A stretch of 64,000 nucleotides of DNA from a phage. Positions 3,092-53,956 of the stretch are shown here, one piece after another. Position 1 is the first letter of the stretch. Each line of letters starts with the position of its first letter. The notes beneath the pieces were generated by a model, which was given only the letters and a program-made list of their open reading frames with translations, was not told where the DNA came from and ran no database searches. Position numbers and translations under genes: made by a program. The DNA lies in the NCBI GenBank assembly GCA_012557565.1, contig GCA_012557565.1_3926.1. One strand, 5' to 3'.

Positions 3092-5075
3092 ACCGAGAAA
3101 ACTGAAAGATGCTGGAACATTTGTAGGTCACTGTGCATGTCCACGCCCTCAATGTTTATCTTCAGATGCAGGTTCTATATATCGTCATGATGACGGTTCA
3201 TATTCAATGACATGTTTCAGTTGTGGAAAAGGTTTTCCAGAGTGGGATTTTGATAAAGGGCAGATTGTGAGTACTCATACTTCAGGTTCAGAGAATAAAA
3301 ACCGTACATTTCGTGGTATGGATTTGGATGATGTGAAAGAAAACCTAGAAGCAATGGATTTAAAAGATAGGAAGATTCCTGCAAAAGTCCTTGAGCGTCT
3401 CGGTATTAAAGTTGATATTGATGATAACGGTGATATTGATGCACATTTCTATCCAACATACAAAAAGGATGAAGATGGTAAGTTGCAACATGTAGGCTAT
3501 CGTGTTCGTCACAAATATCCAGATGACTACCACAAAGAGCACTTACGTGGGAAGTTGAAAGACTTTTCTGGTGGTGTCGGAGATATTAAAGGTGAACTGG
3601 CTATGTTCGGTTCATGGATTGCTCCAGAAGGTGGTAACCGTCTTTTCATCTGGGAAGGTGAGATGGAATGTGCTACAGCAATCTACATGACTTCTTTAGC
3701 AATTAAAGATAAGTCTAGACGTAAGAATTACTGCCACGTTTCTGTACCATCTGGTGCTAATGTTAAGTCTATCAAAGAGAACTATCAGTATATTACTTCC
3801 TTTGATGAAATCTACCTGTGCTTTGATAATGATGAAGCAGGGGCTAAAGCAACTAAGGAAGCTGCTGGTATCTTACCTATTGAGAAAGTAAGACTGTTCC
3901 AGTATCCTGAAGGTATTAAAGACCTTAGTGAGTGGTGGACTAAGTTCTTCAAAGACAAAGATACAGTCTTAGAAGGATTTAAACAACGAATCTACAATGC
4001 ACCTCGTTACTGCCCTGCTGGTATCAAGAACTTTGCAGATGGTTTCGATGCTATGAAGAATCGTGGTCAGATTCCTTTAATTCCTTTCCCAGATTCTTTC
4101 GGGGATTTGAATAAGCTGACTTATGGCGGGTATGGTTTAGGTGAGATTACAACCCTTGCTGCACCTTCATCTGTAGGTAAATCTGCGTATACTCGTGAAA
4201 TGATTTACAAAGCATGGAAAGATACTGAGTACAACATCGGCGTAATCCCTGTTGAGGATACTTACGAAGAACTTATGGAAATGCTCTGTGCAATCCATCT
4301 TAGCAAGCAGATTTCAGAGATTCCTTACGATGAGCGTAATTGGGATGAGATTAAGGTTGCACATGCTGAGTTGTCAAAAGGTCGTCGTATTCACATCGTA
4401 GACCACCAAGGGGCAATTGACCAAGATAACCTGCTGGAGTTTGTTGACTATCTGGTTAATAGTCTTGATTGTAAGATTATCATCCTTGACCCTATTACAT
4501 TGGCACTGTCACGCTCTGATACAGATGAAGAAGAAGTTCTGTCTGAGTTACTTCGTCGCTGTAAGCGTTATCAGTATGCTCAGGTAAACGTGTGTCACGT
4601 TCGTAAGAGTGCAGGTGGTCAAAAGGCTAACTCTGAAGGTGGTGATATTTCTGAAGAAGATATCAAGGGTTCTGGTGCATACTTCCAGATTTCCATGAAC
4701 AACATTTTGCTTATGCGTAACAAGGTTGACCCAGACCCTGTTAAAAAGAACTTGACAAAAATCAAGTTAACAAAATGTCGTCGTCATGGTAAATCAACTG
4801 GTATTGCTGGTCACACTTGGTACAATCCAGATACAGGCCGTCTTGTAAAGGCTGCTGGCTGTGGTGTTGATATTGATGGTGCAGCAGAGAATATTCGTCA
4901 GCAGTTCGGTATTGGTGAGGCTGAAGACCATTATGATGACTCTATGCCACACTATGAAGATGTTGATTTTGACCGTGAATCTGGAGAGATTTACACACAA
5001 GAGCAACGTGAAAGCTCTACCATCCCACCTGTGATTAACGAGGATAATGATGACTGTCCGTTCGAAACTGATTGA
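3084..5075 (+). CDS. DNA primase-helicase (T7 gp4-like)
   Basis: N-terminal Cys-rich zinc-binding segment (CACPRPQC ... CFSCGKG), TOPRIM-like FDNDEAG motif, Walker A-like APSSVGKSAY, DnaB-family-like C-terminal half. Confidence 0.8.
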   Translation: MAKPRKLKDAGTFVGHCACPRPQCLSSDAGSIYRHDDGSYSMTCFSCGKGFPEWDFDKGQIVSTHTSGSENKNRTFRGMDLDDVKENLEAMDLKDRKIPAKVLERLGIKVDIDDNGDIDAHFYPTYKKDEDGKLQHVGYRVRHKYPDDYHKEHLRGKLKDFSGGVGDIKGELAMFGSWIAPEGGNRLFIWEGEMECATAIYMTSLAIKDKSRRKNYCHVSVPSGANVKSIKENYQYITSFDEIYLCFDNDEAGAKATKEAAGILPIEKVRLFQYPEGIKDLSEWWTKFFKDKDTVLEGFKQRIYNAPRYCPAGIKNFADGFDAMKNRGQIPLIPFPDSFGDLNKLTYGGYGLGEITTLAAPSSVGKSAYTREMIYKAWKDTEYNIGVIPVEDTYEELMEMLCAIHLSKQISEIPYDERNWDEIKVAHAELSKGRRIHIVDHQGAIDQDNLLEFVDYLVNSLDCKIIILDPITLALSRSDTDEEEVLSELLRRCKRYQYAQVNVCHVRKSAGGQKANSEGGDISEEDIKGSGAYFQISMNNILLMRNKVDPDPVKKNLTKIKLTKCRRHGKSTGIAGHTWYNPDTGRLVKAAGCGVDIDGAAENIRQQFGIGEAEDHYDDSMPHYEDVDFDRESGEIYTQEQRESSTIPPVINEDNDDCPFETD

Positions 5076-7514: not shown

Positions 7515-8004
7515 AGGTTTTGGTAATTGCCCTGTTTATGGACATTGGATTTCACTGTGCGGGGAAATTGACCCCGCTAACTATTTTGGTTTTGTCTATT
7601 TAGTATACTGTAAGAAAACTGGACAATATTATATTGGAAAGAAACAATTTAATAACATCACTAAGAAAAAGGTTGCTGGAAAGACCAGACGTAAAGTCGT
7701 GACAAAAGAAAGTGATTGGATGACTTATCAAACATCTTCTGAATACATTAAGAAGGATATTGAATCTTTTGGTGAAAAAGAGTTTGACTTCTACATCATC
7801 CAGACTTACTATACGCGAGGTGGCTTAGTTTATGGCGAAGCTAACCTACAACATAAGTTTGACGTCATGACAAAAAGGATTGACTCTAAGCTTCGACTCT
7901 TCTACAATGCAAACATTGCAGCAATCAAGTTTCTTACAAAAGAGACTTATGATGAAGCTGAGAAGAGAATCACTAAAATCATGAAACTTAATGAGAGAGT
8001 TTAA
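7504..8004 (+). CDS. GIY-YIG-like motif protein (possible homing-endonuclease-like)
   Basis: FGFVYLVYCKKTGQYYIGKK matches the GIY-(9-11)-YIG spacing; weak. Confidence 0.35.
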   Translation: MKIKGFGNCPVYGHWISLCGEIDPANYFGFVYLVYCKKTGQYYIGKKQFNNITKKKVAGKTRRKVVTKESDWMTYQTSSEYIKKDIESFGEKEFDFYIIQTYYTRGGLVYGEANLQHKFDVMTKRIDSKLRLFYNANIAAIKFLTKETYDEAEKRITKIMKLNERV

Positions 8005-8221
8005 AATGTTTAATAAAATCAAAAATGACCATGTTTCTAAAATCCAGAGCGGCGTAGCAGCACTGAAGGAGACTATCAATAAAGCTAAGTCAGCTACAGA
8101 AGCTGAGATGGATGCTCTGGAATCACAAATTCAACATCTGTTAAGCAAACGTGTTGAACTCAAAGAACGAATGGACTATATTGAGTCTCAACAAAAGTTG
8201 TTTGAAGATAAGGAGGCTTAA
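7991..8221 (+). CDS. hypothetical protein
   Basis: 76-aa ORF. Confidence 0.4.
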   Translation: MREFKMFNKIKNDHVSKIQSGVAALKETINKAKSATEAEMDALESQIQHLLSKRVELKERMDYIESQQKLFEDKEA

Positions 8222-8976
8222 TGTTTAATTCCAGAGAATCCGTAAGAAATTGGAATCTACGTTGTGGCAATAATCCAAAAGAACCATACAGCACAGAGTA
8301 TTGGGAATCACTGAAAAGTCAATCTCTGTGTATGCTTGAAGAAGCTAGAGAGTTAGTCGCAGCAGTAGAAGCCAAAGACCCTGTTGAGACCCTTGATGCT
8401 CAAGCTGATTTGCAGTATGTACTTGACGGTTTAATTTTCCTGACACAACATGACCATGATGGTGCTATCAAGGCTGTTTGTGAAAACAACAACCTCAAAT
8501 ACACAGACGACTATCAAGAAGCTGTACAGCGAATGTTTGATATTGAAAAACGTACTGGTGATGAATGTTACCTGCGTCAATCAATTATTGAAGGTAAAGA
8601 GTGGTTTGCAATTATTCGCAAGTCTGATGGTAAGATTATGAAACAGTCTAATCTTCCAAAAGTTCAACTTGAAAGTTTTATTGCAGAAGTTGACGCAAAA
8701 GAATTATTTGTGGTAACATCTGACACATGCGTTATCTGCCAAGGACTGATTGGAAGTCTTGGTAGTCTTGGCATTAAAAACTTTTCTAAAGTTGAACCAA
8801 TCTCTTCAAAAGCAGATAAAGACTTCTGCCGTGAGAATGGATTATGGCTTGCGGATATTGTGTACTATGATGGTGAGAAGTTCCATGTAACCTCATATCC
8901 GAAATTGAATTATGATGCAATCAACCTCAAGCAGTGGTTGAAAGGAGTCGGTTATAATGGATTCACAGAACATTAA
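8221..8976 (+). CDS. hypothetical protein
   Basis: 251-aa ORF, ATGA overlap with upstream gene. Confidence 0.55.
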   Translation: MFNSRESVRNWNLRCGNNPKEPYSTEYWESLKSQSLCMLEEARELVAAVEAKDPVETLDAQADLQYVLDGLIFLTQHDHDGAIKAVCENNNLKYTDDYQEAVQRMFDIEKRTGDECYLRQSIIEGKEWFAIIRKSDGKIMKQSNLPKVQLESFIAEVDAKELFVVTSDTCVICQGLIGSLGSLGIKNFSKVEPISSKADKDFCRENGLWLADIVYYDGEKFHVTSYPKLNYDAINLKQWLKGVGYNGFTEH

Positions 8977-27001: not shown

Positions 27002-27016
27002 TAAGTAAATTCCTAA

Positions 27017-27040
27017 AGGGCTGCTTCGGCAGCCTTTTTT
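27017..27040 (+). terminator. rho-independent terminator
   Basis: GGGCTGC-TTCG-GCAGCC then TTTTTT. Confidence 0.8.
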
Positions 27041-27042
27041 AT

Positions 27043-27070
27043 TTGAAAAATGTGCAGGATGATGTATAAT
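27043..27070 (+). promoter_or_regulatory. sigma70-like promoter
   Basis: TTGAAA, 16-bp spacer containing AATGTGCAGG, TATAAT. Confidence 0.55.
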
Positions 27071-30501: not shown

Positions 30502-31296
30502 ATGGGTATCGTAAAAATTATTAAAGGTGATATCTTTAAAGACTTTGATAATAAGAAGTTTGATATCATTGGTCACGGTTGTAACTGCATGAACTTAATG
30601 GGTGCAGGTATTGCAGCAACAATTGCTAAACGTTATCCAAAAGCTTATGAGACTGATGCTGAAGTTTATGCTACAGTTGGTGGTGAAGGTCATAAACCTA
30701 AGCATCTTATGCTTGGTAACATCTCTGTAGCACGTTTTAAGCAGGGTCGAATTGCTAACCTTTACACTCAGGTTATCACTGGTAAAGATGCACGATACAA
30801 TGCTTTAGAAGCAGCTTTGCAGCGTCTTAATAACTACTGCAAAGTAAACCAGCTTAAGAAAGTTGGACTTCCTATGATTGGTGCAGGGATTGGTGGTCTT
30901 GATAGCATGGCTGTGCTGTCTATCATCAATCAGACCATGAAAGATGTTGACGTTTATATGTATGTCTATGAAGATAAGATGTACAGTCAGTTGACTAGTC
31001 CGGTTACTGGTTGGGAAAACTTTAGTGAACCTCAATACTTTGATGGTGTTGCCGTGGTAGGCAAGGATAAAGTTACTCTCAAGGTGAAGCGTAATGGTAA
31101 GGTACACACCAGTTACCCTCCGGTTGAGAAGTACAATCGAAGTAACGCTCAAGTTACCCACCCGTTACAAGGCCATTGTCACAGAGCCGTAACATTTGGT
31201 GATGATGCAAGTGTGTATATCGGTGCTGCTACAGAAGAGTTTGCAGAGGATTATATCACACATGAGAATGTTAACTATGTTGAAGCACGTAACTAA
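30502..31296 (+). CDS. hypothetical protein (GHGCNC...MGAGIA motif, possibly macro-domain-like)
   Basis: 264 aa; motif IIGHGCNCMNLMGAGIAATIAKRYP vaguely recalls ADP-ribose-binding macro-like folds; unverified. Confidence 0.45.
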   Translation: MGIVKIIKGDIFKDFDNKKFDIIGHGCNCMNLMGAGIAATIAKRYPKAYETDAEVYATVGGEGHKPKHLMLGNISVARFKQGRIANLYTQVITGKDARYNALEAALQRLNNYCKVNQLKKVGLPMIGAGIGGLDSMAVLSIINQTMKDVDVYMYVYEDKMYSQLTSPVTGWENFSEPQYFDGVAVVGKDKVTLKVKRNGKVHTSYPPVEKYNRSNAQVTHPLQGHCHRAVTFGDDASVYIGAATEEFAEDYITHENVNYVEARN

Positions 31297-31320
31297 TAAG
31301 TTACCTAAATAGACATAGAC

Positions 31321-31368
31321 AAGCCCTCCAAAGTTTGAGTTTAAAATCTCAGGTAAGGAGGGCTTTTT
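31321..31368 (+). terminator. hairpin terminator (long loop)
   Basis: AAGCCCTCC ... GGAGGGCTT then TTTTT. Confidence 0.55.
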
Positions 31369-31556
31369 CATTTCAAATTTGTGCAGGTGCAATTGCATAG
31401 AACTCTGGACAGATTTCTTTAGCTGAACTCCAAAGGGAAAATTCATTTTCAATTTGTGCAGGTCTAGACTCCAAAGGGCTTTTTCATTTTCAATCTGTGC
31501 AGATGCAGTTGGACTCCAAAGGGAAAATTCATTTTCAATTTGTGCAGGTAGGTAGC
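31357..31556. repeat. tandem array: terminator-derived copy plus three 41-45 bp direct repeats (units start 31428, 31469, 31514)
   Basis: Unit CTCCAAAGGG(aaaat/ctttt)TCATTTTCAAT(T/C)TGTGCAG(G/A)T; shared TGTGCAGG core also at promoter 27043-27070. Confidence 0.85.
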
Positions 31557-31722
31557 TATAGGAAGCAAGACCCACCATCCCCTCTTACTCCCCTTCCTCC
31601 CAAAAGTCAAGAGAAAAATTTGTAGAGAACTGAAAAATAATTCTTGACTAGTTTTCTGTTTTCTGTTAGTTGCGTACACGCGTTTCATTCACAACTTTCC
31701 AAAAATATTTTTAAAAATTTTG

Positions 31723-31751
31723 TTGACTCTATGAATCCAGTTTTGTAGTAT
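31723..31751 (+). promoter_or_regulatory. sigma70-like promoter opening the small-gene region
   Basis: TTGACT, 17-bp spacer, TAGTAT; followed by GGGGCAAGCAAGCCCC hairpin and the CCTAAACTGGAG leader. Confidence 0.5.
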
Positions 31752-31803
31752 TTGCATCAACGGGGCAAGCAAGCCCCAACAATCCTAAACTGGAGAATCT
31801 AAG

Positions 31804-32010
31804 ATGTTATATCAACGTGAATTAATGATTGTTGACAACAACAAAACAAAGAAACGCCGTTTTTATATGCTAATCTGCGACGTTTGGCAACGTATCTCAG
31901 AAAAGGATTTTGATAAATATGTTGATACGTCAATCAGGTCTGATTGTTACCTGACAAATCACACAAGACAATTTACAAGACATACGGCAATTTATTACTA
32001 TAACGTTTAA
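31804..32010 (+). CDS. hypothetical small protein (cassette gene 1)
   Basis: 68 aa; conserved leader upstream. Confidence 0.5.
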   Translation: MLYQRELMIVDNNKTKKRRFYMLICDVWQRISEKDFDKYVDTSIRSDCYLTNHTRQFTRHTAIYYYNV

Positions 32011-32021
32011 AGGGCTTGACA

Positions 32022-32183
32022 ATGATTAAAGAAGGTTATGTAATAAAGTACAAAGGGCAAGACGGATACACAAAGTTGGGACGTGTTTTCTATCTCTATA
32101 CTTCAGTGATGGGCAATGAGTGTATAGCCCTTACAAATGGCGACAAAATAACCATGAAAGATTTTATAAAAATTATTTCATAA
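32022..32183 (+). CDS. hypothetical small protein (53 aa)
   Basis: Own translation MIKEGYVIKYKGQDGYTKLGRVFYLYTSVMGNECIALTNGDKITMKDFIKIIS; no cassette; below track cutoff. Confidence 0.3.
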   Translation: MIKEGYVIKYKGQDGYTKLGRVFYLYTSVMGNECIALTNGDKITMKDFIKIIS

Positions 32184-32268
32184 AGTACTTTACATGGGGT
32201 TTATAAATTGCTAGTATAAGCCCCAGATAAAGAGCTTTACCAACAATCCTAAACTGGAGAATCTAAAA

Positions 32269-32649
32269 ATGAAATATCGTGCGCCTAAATTTATCAACAA
32301 AGAAAACTTTCGTGATGCTCTGGAAAATTCCATGAATGAGCAGTTCAAAGGTAAAATCATTGTTGTTCACGCTTACAATTTTAAGTATGATGTAAATGGT
32401 AACAAGATAAACCACTACACCGCTACAATGTTAGATGGTACACTCTCAGGAGAAAAGGCTATTATAAATGCACTGGCTGGACGTGGTAAAACGTTAATCC
32501 GTTGCGATAAGCGCCGCTATCAAGGAAGTGCTTATGGTTATGAGGATGCAATCTATCATCTTGATAACATGGGTTACAACGTGGTAAAAGCTGGAGTATC
32601 TCAAATGATTGGCAGTGATGGCTATGTAACAATCTTTGAAATTAACTAA
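32269..32649 (+). CDS. hypothetical protein (cassette gene 2)
   Basis: 126 aa; conserved leader. Confidence 0.55.
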   Translation: MKYRAPKFINKENFRDALENSMNEQFKGKIIVVHAYNFKYDVNGNKINHYTATMLDGTLSGEKAIINALAGRGKTLIRCDKRRYQGSAYGYEDAIYHLDNMGYNVVKAGVSQMIGSDGYVTIFEIN

Positions 32650-38329: not shown

Positions 38330-38369
38330 CAAGACGCCGCAACGGGGCAAATAGCCCCAGACACCTTTA

Positions 38370-38391
38370 CAGCCCCTTCAATGGGGCTTTT
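38370..38391 (+). terminator. rho-independent terminator ending the plus-strand block
   Basis: AGCCCC-ttcaat-GGGGCT then TTTTT. Confidence 0.7.
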
Positions 38392-38814
38392 TGACGTCTA
38401 TACAGAACCCTTCCTAGAATCTTACCAGACCTTTAGAATAATAACTCTATAGCTTACTCTATATCATCTTATCAAGTCAACTAACTTTTCCCTTAAATAT
38501 AAGCCCATAACCCGAAAGGGAAGGGCAATCCCTAAAACGCCCTAAAACGCTCTATACGGGCTTATCATCTCATCTTAAGCAATCATATTAACCACTTCTT
38601 AAAAGCCCTTTATAGAGCTTTCTAGAGCCTTAAAAGAATCTTATAAGGGGTATAAGCTTTATTATCTCGTTAGTATCTTGTGAATAGTTAAACAGGGGCT
38701 TGATAATAGCTTCAAAGTATGCTATGGAGTCTAAAAAGAGCTTAAAAGTAACGTAAAAGTTAGCCCCCTTTACATTCTCTTAACAAAATCTTAACAAATG
38801 CAACATAGTTATGC

Positions 38815-38865
38815 TTGTTAGCCCCTTGTTAAATCCTTGTTAGTGGTATGTTAAGAGCTTGTTAG
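38815..38865 (+). repeat. phased array of 5 TGTTA(G/A) motifs at 11-bp spacing
   Basis: Motif starts at 38815, 38826, 38837, 38848, 38859; inverted-orientation copies (TTAACAA) at 38779 and 38790. Confidence 0.8.
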
Positions 38866-39126
38866 ACACTTTGAAGTCCCTGTATAAGCCCCTGTAAAGG
38901 GCTATAAAGAGCTATATAGTCAGTTGGGCTATAGATACTAGTAAGAACCTTAGAAGAGGTCACACAGAGCTATACAGGGCTTTTAAGAGGTATGTTTAGA
39001 GAATCACTGAGAGGGATAGGGAACGATAAGAGAAGAGATAGTGACCATGTTAATAGATTGTTAAACATGTTAAGAACTTAATAGACACTTGTTAATAATC
39101 TTAACAAAATAACTTTTAAATTTAAC

Positions 39127-39268
39127 ATGTTAGGGACTTGTTAGCATCTTGTTAGAACCTTGTAAGAACTGTTAAGCACTTGTTACACCCTTGTTAGTTC
39201 TGTTAAGAAACTGTTAAGAACTTTAGAGACTTGTTAGGGACTTGTTAGAGTTGTAAAGAAATTGTTAA
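39127..39268 (+). repeat. helically phased array of 14 (C)TTGTTAG-type motifs
   Basis: Motif starts 39127, 39138, 39149, 39160, 39169, 39180, 39191, 39200, 39211, 39221, 39231, 39242, 39251, 39262; spacings 9-11 bp, mean about 10.4. Confidence 0.85.
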
Positions 39269-39335
39269 TGATATTTTAAGATTTTGCAAAGGGGATGTTA
39301 CAGGGCTGTTAAGGGCTACTAAGCAGATATACATC

Positions 39336-39359
39336 CATGAGGTAGATTCTACCGAATCC
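39336..39359 (+). repeat. 24-bp direct repeat ATGAGrTAGATTCTAyCGAATCCA, copy 1 (internal GATTC/GAATC palindrome)
   Basis: Near-identical copy at 39959-39982. Confidence 0.75.
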
Positions 39360-39958
39360 ACTAGTAGATATTTTTCAGATTCTCCCAAGAACCTAAAAAG
39401 TGACCTACCTAGTCTATTTTATAAAAATTTTATAGAACTGAATAACTATCTATACACTATCTTATATAAAACAGGAATTAACAGGCTTATAAGATATCTT
39501 GTTAGTAACGTGTTAGACCTTGTAGGATAAGCCTTAGAAGGGAATACCTGTTTAGTGTTATATAACAGTCTATATAGAGGCTTAGTAATCCCTAGTGATT
39601 CTGCTATATAGGGTACTATCTTGGACATAATGGGTTACTGTTAAGTAACACAGATAACCTAGAGATTAAGATGGGTATAGGGGCTTCTAAGGGGCTAGGA
39701 AGAGGTTAGGAAGGTGATTGTATAGGGTTGATTAATGGTAGGCTTAGAAGGCTTTATAGAGGGCTATATAGAGAGCACTATTTAGGGACTAAGAGGCTAT
39801 ATAGATACTATATAATACTATATAGAGATGATGCTTAGAGAGGGTGTTTAGAAGGGTATAGATATTTTATCACATATCATGGTGACCCAAGATGAACGGA
39901 GTGAATCCCAAATTTTATAAAAATATAAATTTCGTAAATTTTACTCAATAAAAACCCC

Positions 39959-39982
39959 TATGAGATAGATTCTATCGAATCC
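39959..39982 (+). repeat. 24-bp direct repeat, copy 2
   Basis: Matches 39336-39359 with two mismatches. Confidence 0.75.
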
Positions 39983-40003
39983 ATTTTAAGGGGCTGTATA
40001 GTC

Positions 40004-40675
40004 TTACATCAATTCACTAAGCATGGCTTGCAATGAAGTTTTAGAAGTCTGGAAGAAGTGTGTGAACCCATTATGACGTTCTCTTACCTGAATCATTATC
40101 TGGTCACCCTTAATCGGGTGTGAACTAATATGGTATTCATTCATGTTCAGTACAACACCCAAACCATCTATAATGTGTCTGAGTATGTCATATTCAACAA
40201 ATTCTTCTTTACCTGTGACCTTGATACAAACACCTTTGTTGGTTCTCTTAGGGTTTATATCTTCCATAACCAGCATTTGTTGTCCACCAAGAGAAATCAT
40301 AGAGAACTCTTTACGGTTCTGCTGCTTAACATACATCTCAAGTTTCTTCAAAGTATCTTCAAAGAACGGATAAGATTTCTTGACAAAGATACCTTCAAGT
40401 GGCTCTTTACCTGAATCTTCTCGTTCCATCTTAAGTCGATTAACAAGTAATTCTAAAGACCACTTCTCACTTTCATCAAGATATGTATTGATATCATCTA
40501 GACTCAGTACCAGATACTTTCTTTCAAGTTCAAACTTTTTCATCTCTATCAAATCCTTAAAACATTTCTTAGTAATTGCTTCCCATTCTTCGGAGTTCTT
40601 TCTCTTCCTCTTCAGATGGGGAACCATATCTGTTAAGTTCTTCCAACTCTTCTTCAGTAGGTGTCCCATAATCAC
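40004..40675 (-). CDS. hypothetical protein
   Basis: 223-aa ORF, last gene of the minus-strand module. Confidence 0.5.
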   Translation of the reverse strand: MIMGHLLKKSWKNLTDMVPHLKRKRKNSEEWEAITKKCFKDLIEMKKFELERKYLVLSLDDINTYLDESEKWSLELLVNRLKMEREDSGKEPLEGIFVKKSYPFFEDTLKKLEMYVKQQNRKEFSMISLGGQQMLVMEDINPKRTNKGVCIKVTGKEEFVEYDILRHIIDGLGVVLNMNEYHISSHPIKGDQIMIQVRERHNGFTHFFQTSKTSLQAMLSELM

Positions 40676-53654: not shown

Positions 53655-53882
53655 ATGTTTAAACTCATAGTTGAAAAACACCCAGAAGATGACAAGCTTG
53701 AAACAGGGAGATTTGGAGATACTTTCTTTATCAGAGTTGGCTGGAAAGCTGACCCATTAGAAGTTAGAAAGATTGTCTACAACTTTGCTGGTTTGGAATT
53801 AAAGCAAGTCATCTTTGAAACAATGTTGCCAGAAAATAAAGATACATGCAATAACGCATATATTCTTACAAGAGTTAGTTAG
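53655..53882 (+). CDS. hypothetical small protein, tandem paralog 2
   Basis: 75 aa MFKLIVEKHPEDDKLE... paralogous to 53383-53610 (shared FETMLPENKDTCNNAYILTRV). Confidence 0.55.
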   Translation: MFKLIVEKHPEDDKLETGRFGDTFFIRVGWKADPLEVRKIVYNFAGLELKQVIFETMLPENKDTCNNAYILTRVS

Positions 53883-53956
53883 GGGATTAGTTTACAAGGT
53901 TAAAACCTCGGTCTTTGAAATCGAAGAAGTTGGTTCAATTCCAACATCCCCCGCCA
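53881..53956 (+). tRNA. tRNA-Gln(TTG)
   Basis: D-stem GTTT/AAAC, anticodon stem TCGGT/ATCGA, loop CTTTGAA, T-arm GTTGG-TTCAATT-CCAAC, CCA; 1:72 mismatch. Confidence 0.7.

Follow-up and report, generated by a model that had tools for sequence, protein, structure and literature searches.

The terminator and the repeat array

The stretch of DNA analysed here (64,000 nucleotides of phage contig GCA_012557565.1_3926.1, GenBank assembly GCA_012557565.1; hereafter the window) carries, between positions 31321 and 31549, an intrinsic terminator followed by a short array of direct repeats. Judged from its sequence, this element would be a direct-repeat protein-binding array, ancient, unique in its genome and directly testable. 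The surrounding region (30800-32300) shows 97% identity to Escherichia phage SUSP1 and 90-95% to Moogle-like phages of Citrobacter and Shigella. Therefore, the window belongs to an Ounavirinae (Felix O1-type) myovirus of about 88-90 kb. The array occupies a 507-bp gap devoid of genes. Upstream lies a macro-domain gene, the last gene of a + strand operon, which anchors the fixed genomic place of the array; downstream lie about 18 small + strand early genes, the first at 31804-32010, of which none has a Pfam family. This early-gene block extends over about 7 kb and ends at the right end of the genome. The features of the array region are as follows (bits refer to a weight matrix built from the array units; identities are mean pairwise values computed across 16 genomes):

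30502-31296, + strand: macro-domain ('phosphatase') gene, from the list of open reading frames (ORFs); Pfam Macro, E 7e-8; homologues annotated in relatives
31321-31368, + strand: intrinsic terminator, homologue of Felix O1 t13; 9-bp G/C stem, 27-nt loop with an inner stem, T-run (sequence, fold and Table 2 of the Felix O1 genome paper)
31361-31388, + strand: copy 0, core GGCTTTTTCATTTCAAATTTGTGCAGGT, fused to the 3' arm and T-run of the terminator; 41.1 bits, identity 0.92
31389-31427, + strand: long spacer between copy 0 and unit 1; identity 0.69, variable between genera, with a 10-bp insertion in one phage
31428-31463, + strand: unit 1, left arm CTCCAAAGG and core GGAAAATTCATTTTCAATTTGTGCAGGT, A-run type; 40.1 bits, core identity 0.88; missing in contig L056
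31469-31504, + strand: unit 2, left arm and core GGCTTTTTCATTTTCAATCTGTGCAGAT, T-run type; 41.4 bits, core identity 0.90; the unit nearest to a loop-deleted terminator
31515-31549, + strand: unit 3, left arm and a core identical to that of unit 1; core identity 0.92, left arm 0.61, the left arm being replaced by GGCAAG in Felixounavirus and Kolesnikvirus

The terminator arms are AAGCCCTCC (5', 31321-31329) and GGAGGGCTT (3', 31357-31365), and the T-run ends at 31368. This hairpin is present in both the minimum-energy and the centroid folds, and the Felix O1 genome paper lists the homologous hairpin as terminator t13, with a free energy of -21.8 kcal/mol (PMC3185647). A simple terminator scan missed it because its loop is 27 nt long. 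The 5' arm differs between Mooglevirus and Felixounavirus, with pairing preserved. Within the array region, a G/C stem-loop followed by a T-run is found only at 31321-31368. In units 1-3, the T- or A-run and a remnant of the 3' arm are left, without any 5' arm or hairpin; these units are therefore not terminators.

The core motif is about 27 bases long and bipartite (W5-TCATTTT-N6-GTGCAG-R). Read as a protein site, it would consist of box A (an A- or T-run plus TCATTTT), about six variable bases and box B (GTGCAG(G/A)). Four copies lie in the same orientation at 31361-31388, 31436-31463, 31477-31504 and 31522-31549, with start-to-start spacings of 75, 41 and 45 bp. Tandem Repeats Finder reports 31427-31549 (period 45, 2.9 copies, score 165) as the strongest short-period array of the window, and the 22-mer TTCATTTTCAATTTGTGCAGGT, with at most three mismatches, occurs four times against 0.00 expected. 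The first-pass annotation had described a terminator hairpin at 31321-31368 followed by three direct repeats starting at 31428, 31469 and 31514. The hairpin and the repeats are real according to sequence, folds and Tandem Repeats Finder, and the first two starts are exact. However, CTCCAAAGGG starts at 31428, 31469 and 31515, and there are four core copies rather than three, because the terminator's own tail (31361-31388) is copy 0. The same annotation rightly described the repeat, for this genome, as a terminator with its loop deleted: unit 2 (31469-31513) corresponds to 31326-31396 minus 31334-31359, and the similarity extends beyond the core, as GTGCAG(G/A)TGCA(A/G)TTG.

The match between the left arm CTCCAAAG and the 5' arm of the terminator is limited to Mooglevirus and SUSP1-type phages; it does not extend to Felixounavirus or Kolesnikvirus. 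GGCAA(G/C) replaces the left arm in copy 3 of Felixounavirus and in units U2 and U3 of Kolesnikvirus. In every lineage, each unit opens with a G/C-rich stub reminiscent of the 3' arm of a hairpin, followed by a T-run and a CATTT tail. Box A is the tail common to terminators of this phage (CTTTTT(C/T)ATTT in t2, t5 and t13). Since box A is a terminator tail preceded by a 3'-arm stub, the units are best seen as copies of the 3' half of a terminator plus about 25 downstream bases. They would have arisen by repeated copying of this segment, and the duplication would predate the split of the Ounavirinae genera.

Distribution and conservation of the array

In nine Mooglevirus and Suspvirus genomes, the gap can be aligned over its full length and contains the same four copies. 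A sensitive search detected the array in 256 records of Felix O1-like phages, including Felix O1 itself (7970-8261), and a search with the Kolesnikvirus array as query returned 257 records, 29 of them Erwinia phages. In Kolesnikvirus (phiEa21-4-like phages of Erwinia, Salmonella, Hafnia and Cronobacter), four units follow the terminator of the macro gene with spacings of 37, 37 and 39 bp. Proteins of this region are only 35-60% identical between the window and Kolesnikvirus, and the macro-domain homologue is only 36% identical, with the array still downstream of it. The unit cores are identical at 20-24 of 28 positions (24 of 28 for unit 2 against Kolesnikvirus U1), and similarity of non-coding DNA survives only at the array, at the early promoter modules and in part of the terminal region.

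Conservation is concentrated in the cores, with mean pairwise identities of 0.88-0.92 versus 0.47-0.69 for the spacers between them. Within the cores, variation is restricted to the 6-7 bases between TCATTT(T) and GTGCAG, the latter being invariant in all copies of all Felix, Moogle and Susp genomes examined. Box B reads GTGCATA(G/A) in all four units of Kolesnikvirus versus GTGCAG(G/A) in all Felix, Moogle and Susp units. The run preceding TCATTTT is AAAAT or AAAAA in some units and TTTTT in others, and the unit types correspond across genera: the A-run units of the window resemble Kolesnikvirus U3, and its T-run units resemble U1 and U4. The spacing between copy 0 and unit 1 is 75, 73 or 83 bp among relatives; other spacings between units of relatives include 41, 37 and 73 bp, with 37-39 bp in Kolesnikvirus versus 39-45 bp elsewhere.

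The copy number is stable. A regular-expression count on 17 aligned genomes gave four copies in 15 of them; one of the two others (L019) owes its count of three to one altered base in the unit 1 core, and only L056 truly has three. Kolesnikvirus also has four. A variable-number tandem repeat is therefore rejected. In L056 (IMGVR_UViG_2974574300_000001, 4250-4838), the macro gene is replaced and a different hairpin is followed by the same tail and box B, with unit 1 missing; this is a recombination joint at the terminator.

No matching sequence occurs in 5,426 Escherichia coli genomes, and a host origin was rejected. An exact-pattern scan of IMG/VR gave mostly single chance matches, with two or three matches only in Felix O1-like contigs, and a locus search anchored on the macro protein retrieved close relatives only. 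Two public records have an end inside the array: MN850610 (Andreotti, L012, positions 1-235) starts there and KT184313 (KhF1) ends there, and the former annotates a 22-bp 'repeat_region'. These ends look like assembly breaks at repeats rather than physical ends.

A solitary fifth site at 27 kb

One further copy of the core lies about 4 kb upstream of the array, also behind a terminator:

27015-27038, + strand: terminator after the rIIB homologue, homologue of Felix O1 t2 (sequence, terminator scan, Felix O1 paper)
27032-27059, + strand: fifth, solitary core copy GCCTTTTTTATTTGAAAAATGTGCAGGA, fused to the terminator tail; 22.0 bits

This site overlaps the -35 element and the spacer of a promoter, TTGAAA-16-TATAAT (27043-27070). 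The motif spans about -45 to -19 of this promoter; box A covers -38 to -33, and box B covers -26 to -20. The -10 element is a good one, and the -35 is poor in Felixounavirus. With the weight matrix the site scores 22.0 bits, and the next real match 13.9; the best scores of 200 shuffled windows averaged 7.9 +/- 3.8, and none of them reached 22. The first-pass annotation had placed a distant copy of the core near 27043-27060, at this promoter. TGTGCAGG does lie there (27051-27058), whereas the consensus written for it does not hold: the site reads TTTGAAAAATGTGCAGG, which matches copy 0 at 14 of 17 positions. On its own, TGTGCAGG is at chance level (four matches against 1.74 expected, with 10 of 100 shuffles reaching four).

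In Felixounavirus, GTGCAG is kept at this site while the -35 drifts to TTGTAT, a retention that is not above the local background of 80% identity (0.8^6, about 0.26). A scan of the 85-kb Kolesnikvirus genome found no 27-kb site; the motif occurs there four times, all within the array. The composite motif occurs five times in the window (four times in the array and once at 27 kb), and it is absent from the 28 kb of SUSP1 that lie outside the window. Hence the view, also proposed at first pass, that the core is reused at promoters does not stand: it is found at the array and one promoter only, both in the window and in the remainder of the 97%-identical genome, and in Kolesnikvirus at the array alone. 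The view of the array as a repeat of variable copy number fares no better: virtually all relatives have four copies, and a single contig has three. Since the copy number is invariant and the core is absent from other promoters, a reading based on repeat variation and a promoter regulon fails.

Promoters and sequence blocks downstream of the array

Between the array and the first early gene, the following features were recognized:

31570-31601, + strand: C-run tract ACCCACCATCCCCTCTTACTCCCCTTCCTCCC, with four G-runs on the - strand; present in Mooglevirus, Suspvirus, Felix O1-type phages and Kolesnikvirus
31601-31672, no strand assigned: A-tract block with back-to-back -35 elements; identity 0.90 over 31601-31651, hexamer layout in 18 genomes
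31644-31672, + strand: candidate rightward promoter P1, TTGACT (31644-31649), 17 nt, TGtTAGTTG (31664-31672)
31610-31582, - strand: candidate leftward promoter, -35 TTGACT (31610-31605), 17 nt, weak -10 TAAGAG (31587-31582), pointing into the array
31723-31751, + strand: early promoter P2, TTGACT-17-TAGTAT, with an A/T tract upstream (promoter scan)

P2 is predicted to drive the first small early gene (31804-32010). Its TTGAC and most positions of its -10 are identical across genera, and the remaining hexamer positions vary. The -35 of the putative leftward promoter corresponds to the conserved GTCAAG read on the opposite strand. All three lineages have a -10-like hexamer 17-18 bp past it, despite unrelated intervening sequence: TTGACG-18-TATACT in Kolesnikvirus, TTGACT-17-TGgTAGCCT in one Felixounavirus group and TTGACT-17-TAAGAG in the window. 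Between two Kolesnikvirus species, these hexamers are conserved while the spacer carries five changes. The -10 is weak in the window and good in Kolesnikvirus. A leftward promoter firing into the array is therefore plausible.

The AA/TT helical periodicity of the 31601-31672 block is in the top 4% of genome windows. In this genome of 38% G+C, the C-run tract is a potential G-quadruplex motif on the - strand; in one Felixounavirus group, it is replaced by a G-rich tract on the + strand. In several relatives (loci L007, L001 and L013), a fair -10 (TATAGT, TATTAT or TAGAGT) lies right after copy 0, 17 bp past TTTTCA. Copy 0 might thus possibly form a weak rightward promoter in these phages; no such promoter is present in the window (TGCAAT within 31361-31396).

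Position of the array relative to the genome ends

Many public records open near the array. Its assignment as a genome terminus or packaging site was rejected. In the relative Pr103Blw, a 581-bp terminal repeat is annotated (PMC8303462), which corresponds by homology to 38763-39340 of the window. Since this homologue lies about 7.3 kb downstream, the array is not a physical genome end; it lies 7.2-7.8 kb inside the right end, that is, at about 8.8% of a genome of about 88.5 kb. Records ordered with PhageTerm likewise place it about 7 kb from the right end. Terminal repeats of similar size were proven experimentally for UAB_Phi87 (PMC4837284); its record was opened arbitrarily within the tRNA cluster and yields no terminus position.

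The homologue of the Pr103Blw repeat lies in a gene-free region of 1.67 kb (38330-40004), where the genes switch from the + to the - strand. This region is dense in tandem repeats of 10-11 bp (for instance 39128-39250, 11.7 copies of TGTTAGAGACT) and probably contains the physical genome ends and the packaging signals.

Between 31800 and 38330, many small genes are preceded by a module composed of a promoter (TTTACA-17-TAGTAT or TAAGAT), a hairpin in the 5' untranslated region and a ribosome site CCTAAACTGGAGA. These modules share 75-86% DNA identity with Kolesnikvirus and resemble promoter/stem-loop cassettes of T4-type phages. Elsewhere in the window, a 272-bp tandem duplication (53330-53885, two copies, 76% identical) lies within the tRNA region; its consensus opens with the 3' end of a tRNA (GGTTCGAATCC), after which comes a short reading frame.

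Other assignments of the array

The array is not coding. No reading frame across it is conserved in relatives, spacings of 41, 37 and 73 bp are not multiples of three, and relatives differ by indels of 2 and 4 bp. The ORFs annotated over it disagree in strand, frame and extent. Such ORFs are found over 31165-31688 and at the corresponding loci L001, L004, L007, L010 and L143: Moogle115, Mordin_126, Sf13 gp58, SB18 QHI00560 and three + strand ORFs of pEC-M719. These 'hypothetical proteins' are not conserved and look spurious. The presence of a repeat array at this spot explains both the spurious ORF calls and the assembly breaks in public records.

A structured RNA was also rejected: single-sequence folds of the two strands gave z scores of -0.18 and +0.15, the alignment fold reached -9.8 kcal/mol with a covariation term of -0.55 and revealed no conserved fold, and no Rfam family matched the array better than E of about 1. 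As for sigma-70 promoters, the scan listed none in the units on either strand, and the candidate -10 elements after box B are not conserved; among the core sites, only the one at 27 kb, with TTGAAA-16-TATAAT, looks like a sigma-70 promoter. Since the composite core is confined to the array and one promoter, it is not a general promoter element.

Box B is not a DnaA box in the window: its reverse complement ACCTGCACA matches the DnaA box TTATNCACA at six of nine positions, with mismatches at positions 1-3. The window contains five perfect DnaA boxes, all away from the array, and no consensus box lies nearby. In Kolesnikvirus, the reverse complements of box B (CTATGCACA and TTATGCACG) match the DnaA box at eight of nine positions, such matches being expected about once per kb by chance. 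The array contains neither intrinsic curvature nor an A/T-rich unwinding element, and it does not correspond to an array of clustered regularly interspaced short palindromic repeats (CRISPR), since it has only four units and its short 'spacers' are conserved. About ten consensus sequences of host factors were compared with the core by eye; with that many, a partial match is expected by chance and would be a lead at most. For IHF, 10 of 13 positions match the lambda H' core, but the invariant bases are not the right ones and the match was rejected. The consensus sequences of Fis, CRP, sigma-54, sigma-E, PhoP, PhoB, the MarA/SoxS marbox, the CsrA GGA motif and the UP element do not fit the invariant positions either.

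A putative binding site for a phage protein

We give somewhat better than even chances to the reading of the array as a cis-acting DNA element with four same-orientation sites for one sequence-specific, probably phage-encoded DNA-binding protein. We infer the binding of the protein, its encoding by the phage and the function of the complex from the following features. A DNA site read by one protein is favoured because the core is asymmetric and bipartite, its orientation is strict, the number of copies is stable at four, the array is unique in the genome, only the cores are conserved, A- and T-runs are interchangeable and box B is lineage-specific. The concerted change of box B is the pattern expected if the sites track the specificity of one evolving partner. 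The hosts of these lineages belong to the same bacterial order and have DNA-binding factors of very similar specificity. Since the boxes differ though the hosts share such factors, the partner is more likely to be encoded by the phage. Furthermore, A- and T-runs are equivalent in duplex DNA but not in RNA, and their exchange in box A therefore favours a site that acts at the DNA level. The first-pass annotation had already suggested a protein-binding site. This idea fits the strong core-specific conservation and would be, as far as sequence can tell, the best-supported class of explanation.

A protein bound to the four sites would form a complex at a fixed landmark, the border between the operon running from rIIA to the macro gene and the early-gene block, just upstream of the conserved back-to-back promoter pair. 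This complex would most likely serve a function needed once per genome. Such a function would point to an origin of replication or to the region that controls it, and this is our tentative first choice. Insulation or control of the adjacent promoters comes second, as a possibility that we regard as nearly as likely. An origin is favoured by the layout, which resembles that of iterons, by the divergent promoters and A/T-rich DNA close by, and by the upstream terminator, which would insulate the site. Like an iteron-type origin, the array has at least three repeats that share one orientation and are unique in the genome. More broadly, the array may be a single cis-acting start or checkpoint site: a replication origin used by a phage initiator whose specificity would have shifted between Kolesnikvirus (GTGCATA) and the Felix/Moogle/Susp lineage (GTGCAGG), or a T5-like entry stop for a first-entering host-takeover block of about 7.5 kb. 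Either way, it would have been assembled from co-opted repeats of a terminator tail. We would call this combined possibility conceivable, well short of probable.

Various observations weigh against a protein-binding site, and more specifically against an origin. None of the neighbouring genes encodes a DNA-binding Pfam domain (they are the macro-domain protein and ORFans without Pfam match), the first gene downstream of the array is not conserved from one genus to another, and the spacing is out of helical register (37-39 versus 39-45 bp), which argues against strict cooperativity on one face of the helix. The relatives are not phylogenetically independent and reduce to about three deep lineages. 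The concerted change of box B could also result from gene conversion among the units. Concerning an origin, Pfam reveals no initiator gene among the genes flanking the array and no obvious A/T-rich unwinding element directly abuts it. The A+T content of the array (62%) equals the genome average, without helical phasing of A-tracts; the nearest stretches of 77-83% A+T lie 60-170 bp away and double as UP elements of promoters. GC skew, which is dominated by the direction of transcription, does not switch at the array, and its small change there is opposite to the expectation for a leading strand. Moreover, the gene-free, repeat-rich region at 38.3-40.0 kb (38330-40004) is an equally good candidate for an origin. 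As for the control of promoters, the other early promoters, about 18 in number, lack the motif, and the distance between the array and P1 varies from about 95 to about 204 bp among relatives.

Alternative explanations

The main alternative is a transcriptional boundary or control element, in which a protein or the DNA itself would back up t13, block polymerases coming from either side or tune the divergent promoters, the 27-kb site being an operator or activator box in the promoter of gene 3. The array always directly follows a terminator that ends an operon, even in L056, where the upstream gene and the hairpin have been replaced, and in Kolesnikvirus; it also precedes the conserved P1 and P2 and the putative leftward promoter that points into it. 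In addition, the fifth site overlaps the -35 and the spacer of a good promoter, where GTGCAG is kept while the -35 drifts. However, this retention does not exceed the local background, one site at a promoter in about 90 kb, with none in Kolesnikvirus, does not make a regulon, the distance from array to promoter differs two-fold, and the units have no usable -10 at a fixed distance. We consider this explanation possible and rather doubtful. An explanation at the RNA level appears unlikely: the leftward promoter would produce an antisense non-coding RNA of about 260-330 nt, whose four repeats would act as a decoy or sponge or which would prime replication. The putative promoter is found in all three lineages despite sequence turnover, and its hexamers are conserved between the two Kolesnikvirus species that differ by five spacer changes. 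However, in the lineage of the window its -10 (TAAGAG) lacks the key final T, neither strand has a conserved or unusually stable fold or an Rfam family, no U-run follows the t13 hairpin on the - strand, and the exchange of A- and T-runs in box A, neutral at the DNA level, is not so for RNA. Furthermore, GGA motifs on the - strand are not conserved, which makes a CsrA-type sponge unlikely.

The array could also, by analogy with the injection stop signal (iss) of phage T5, hold incoming DNA once the terminal early block is inside the cell. Its position relative to the right end, deduced from homology to the Pr103Blw terminal repeat and in agreement with PhageTerm-ordered records, recalls the T5 iss, a conserved, repeat-rich and gene-free region that lies at 7.9% from the end and bounds the host-takeover genes (bioRxiv 10.1101/866236). 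DnaA boxes are the proposed T5 stop, and the Kolesnikvirus copies of box B come within one base of a DnaA box. Against this, such near matches are frequent by chance, box B of the window is a poorer match with no consensus box nearby, and, apart from the terminator, none of the large inverted repeats and palindromes that characterize the T5 iss occurs here. Moreover, two-step entry is not reported for Felix O1-like phages in the literature searched, and the early genes are transcribed towards the end, so that their promoters would enter last. We therefore regard an entry checkpoint of this kind as very improbable. Least probable of all, and barely worth retaining, is a functionless relic, in which copies of a terminator tail, made by strand slippage or recombination, would have persisted by chance or by hitch-hiking. 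The units are clearly derived from a terminator, box A is a generic terminator tail (CTTTTT(C/T)ATTT), and the two assemblies that break inside the array indicate that it is ordinary repeat DNA to assemblers. However, the cores are far more conserved than the spacers, the copy number is stable, the array is retained across lineages with 35-60% protein identity, and box B is uniform in each genome and different between lineages.

Felix O1-type phages are classic diagnostic phages of Salmonella and are now common in therapy and biocontrol cocktails. The array is an obvious site to keep or to avoid when these genomes are engineered. Furthermore, the lineage-specific box (GTGCAGG versus GTGCATA) offers a ready-made specificity test for the partner protein. 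In the open-access literature, we found no description of the array, of a replication origin or of transcript maps for Felix O1-type phages. The 2010 Felix O1 genome paper mentions twelve direct repeats of at least 24 bp without naming the array among them, and states that temporal regulation is unknown.

Comparison with known systems

The closest resemblance is to iterons. In lambda ori, P1 oriR and RK2 oriV, as in the array, 3-5 direct repeats of about 20 bp or more lie in one orientation and are unique in the genome. They also lie in a gene-free stretch close to promoters and A/T-rich DNA, and their sequence co-varies with that of the partner between related replicons. Unlike the array, iterons have a centre spacing of about 22 bp (versus 37-45 bp), an adjacent initiator gene and an abutting unwinding element. 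T7-type initiation is not known to need iterons. The replication genes of Felix O1-type phages resemble those of T7 (Felix O1 genome paper).

The T5 iss, like the array, is a conserved gene-free repeat region located about 8-9% from a genome end, which bounds small early genes and is better conserved than the surrounding genes (bioRxiv 10.1101/866236). However, it is 1.2-1.6 kb long, contains nested inverted repeats and palindromes as well as paired DnaA boxes, and lies within a 10-kb terminal repeat. In contrast, the array is made of simple direct repeats over 190 bp; it lies outside the terminal repeat, which measures about 0.6 kb, and has no consensus DnaA boxes in this lineage.

Same-orientation repeats with a spacing of about 43 bp are also found in sopC of the F plasmid. 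There, 12 tandem repeats of 43 bp, spaced by four helical turns, carry one protein site each. Unlike the array, sopC has a 7-bp inverted repeat in each unit and a ParB-type protein encoded next door, and the Kolesnikvirus spacing is 37-39 bp. We know of no partition genes in these phages, and none would be expected in a virulent phage.

The 27-kb site can be compared with the MotA box of T4 (at -30) and with the Q-binding element of lambda (between -35 and -10), since in each case the motif lies inside a promoter. However, only one such promoter exists in this genome, and the four copies of the array are not associated with a promoter. Moreover, no homologue of MotA, AsiA or Q is reported for Felix O1 (2010 genome paper). 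The 27-kb site also resembles the terminator-plus-promoter (PeSL) cassettes of T4-type phages, in which a stem-loop is immediately followed by a promoter. Unlike these cassettes and t13, units 1-3 have neither a hairpin nor a usable -10, and their box B has no counterpart in the cassettes. The units are nevertheless derivatives of a terminator tail, and the array can be viewed as a clean putative example of a terminator tail that was copied and co-opted into a protein-binding array.

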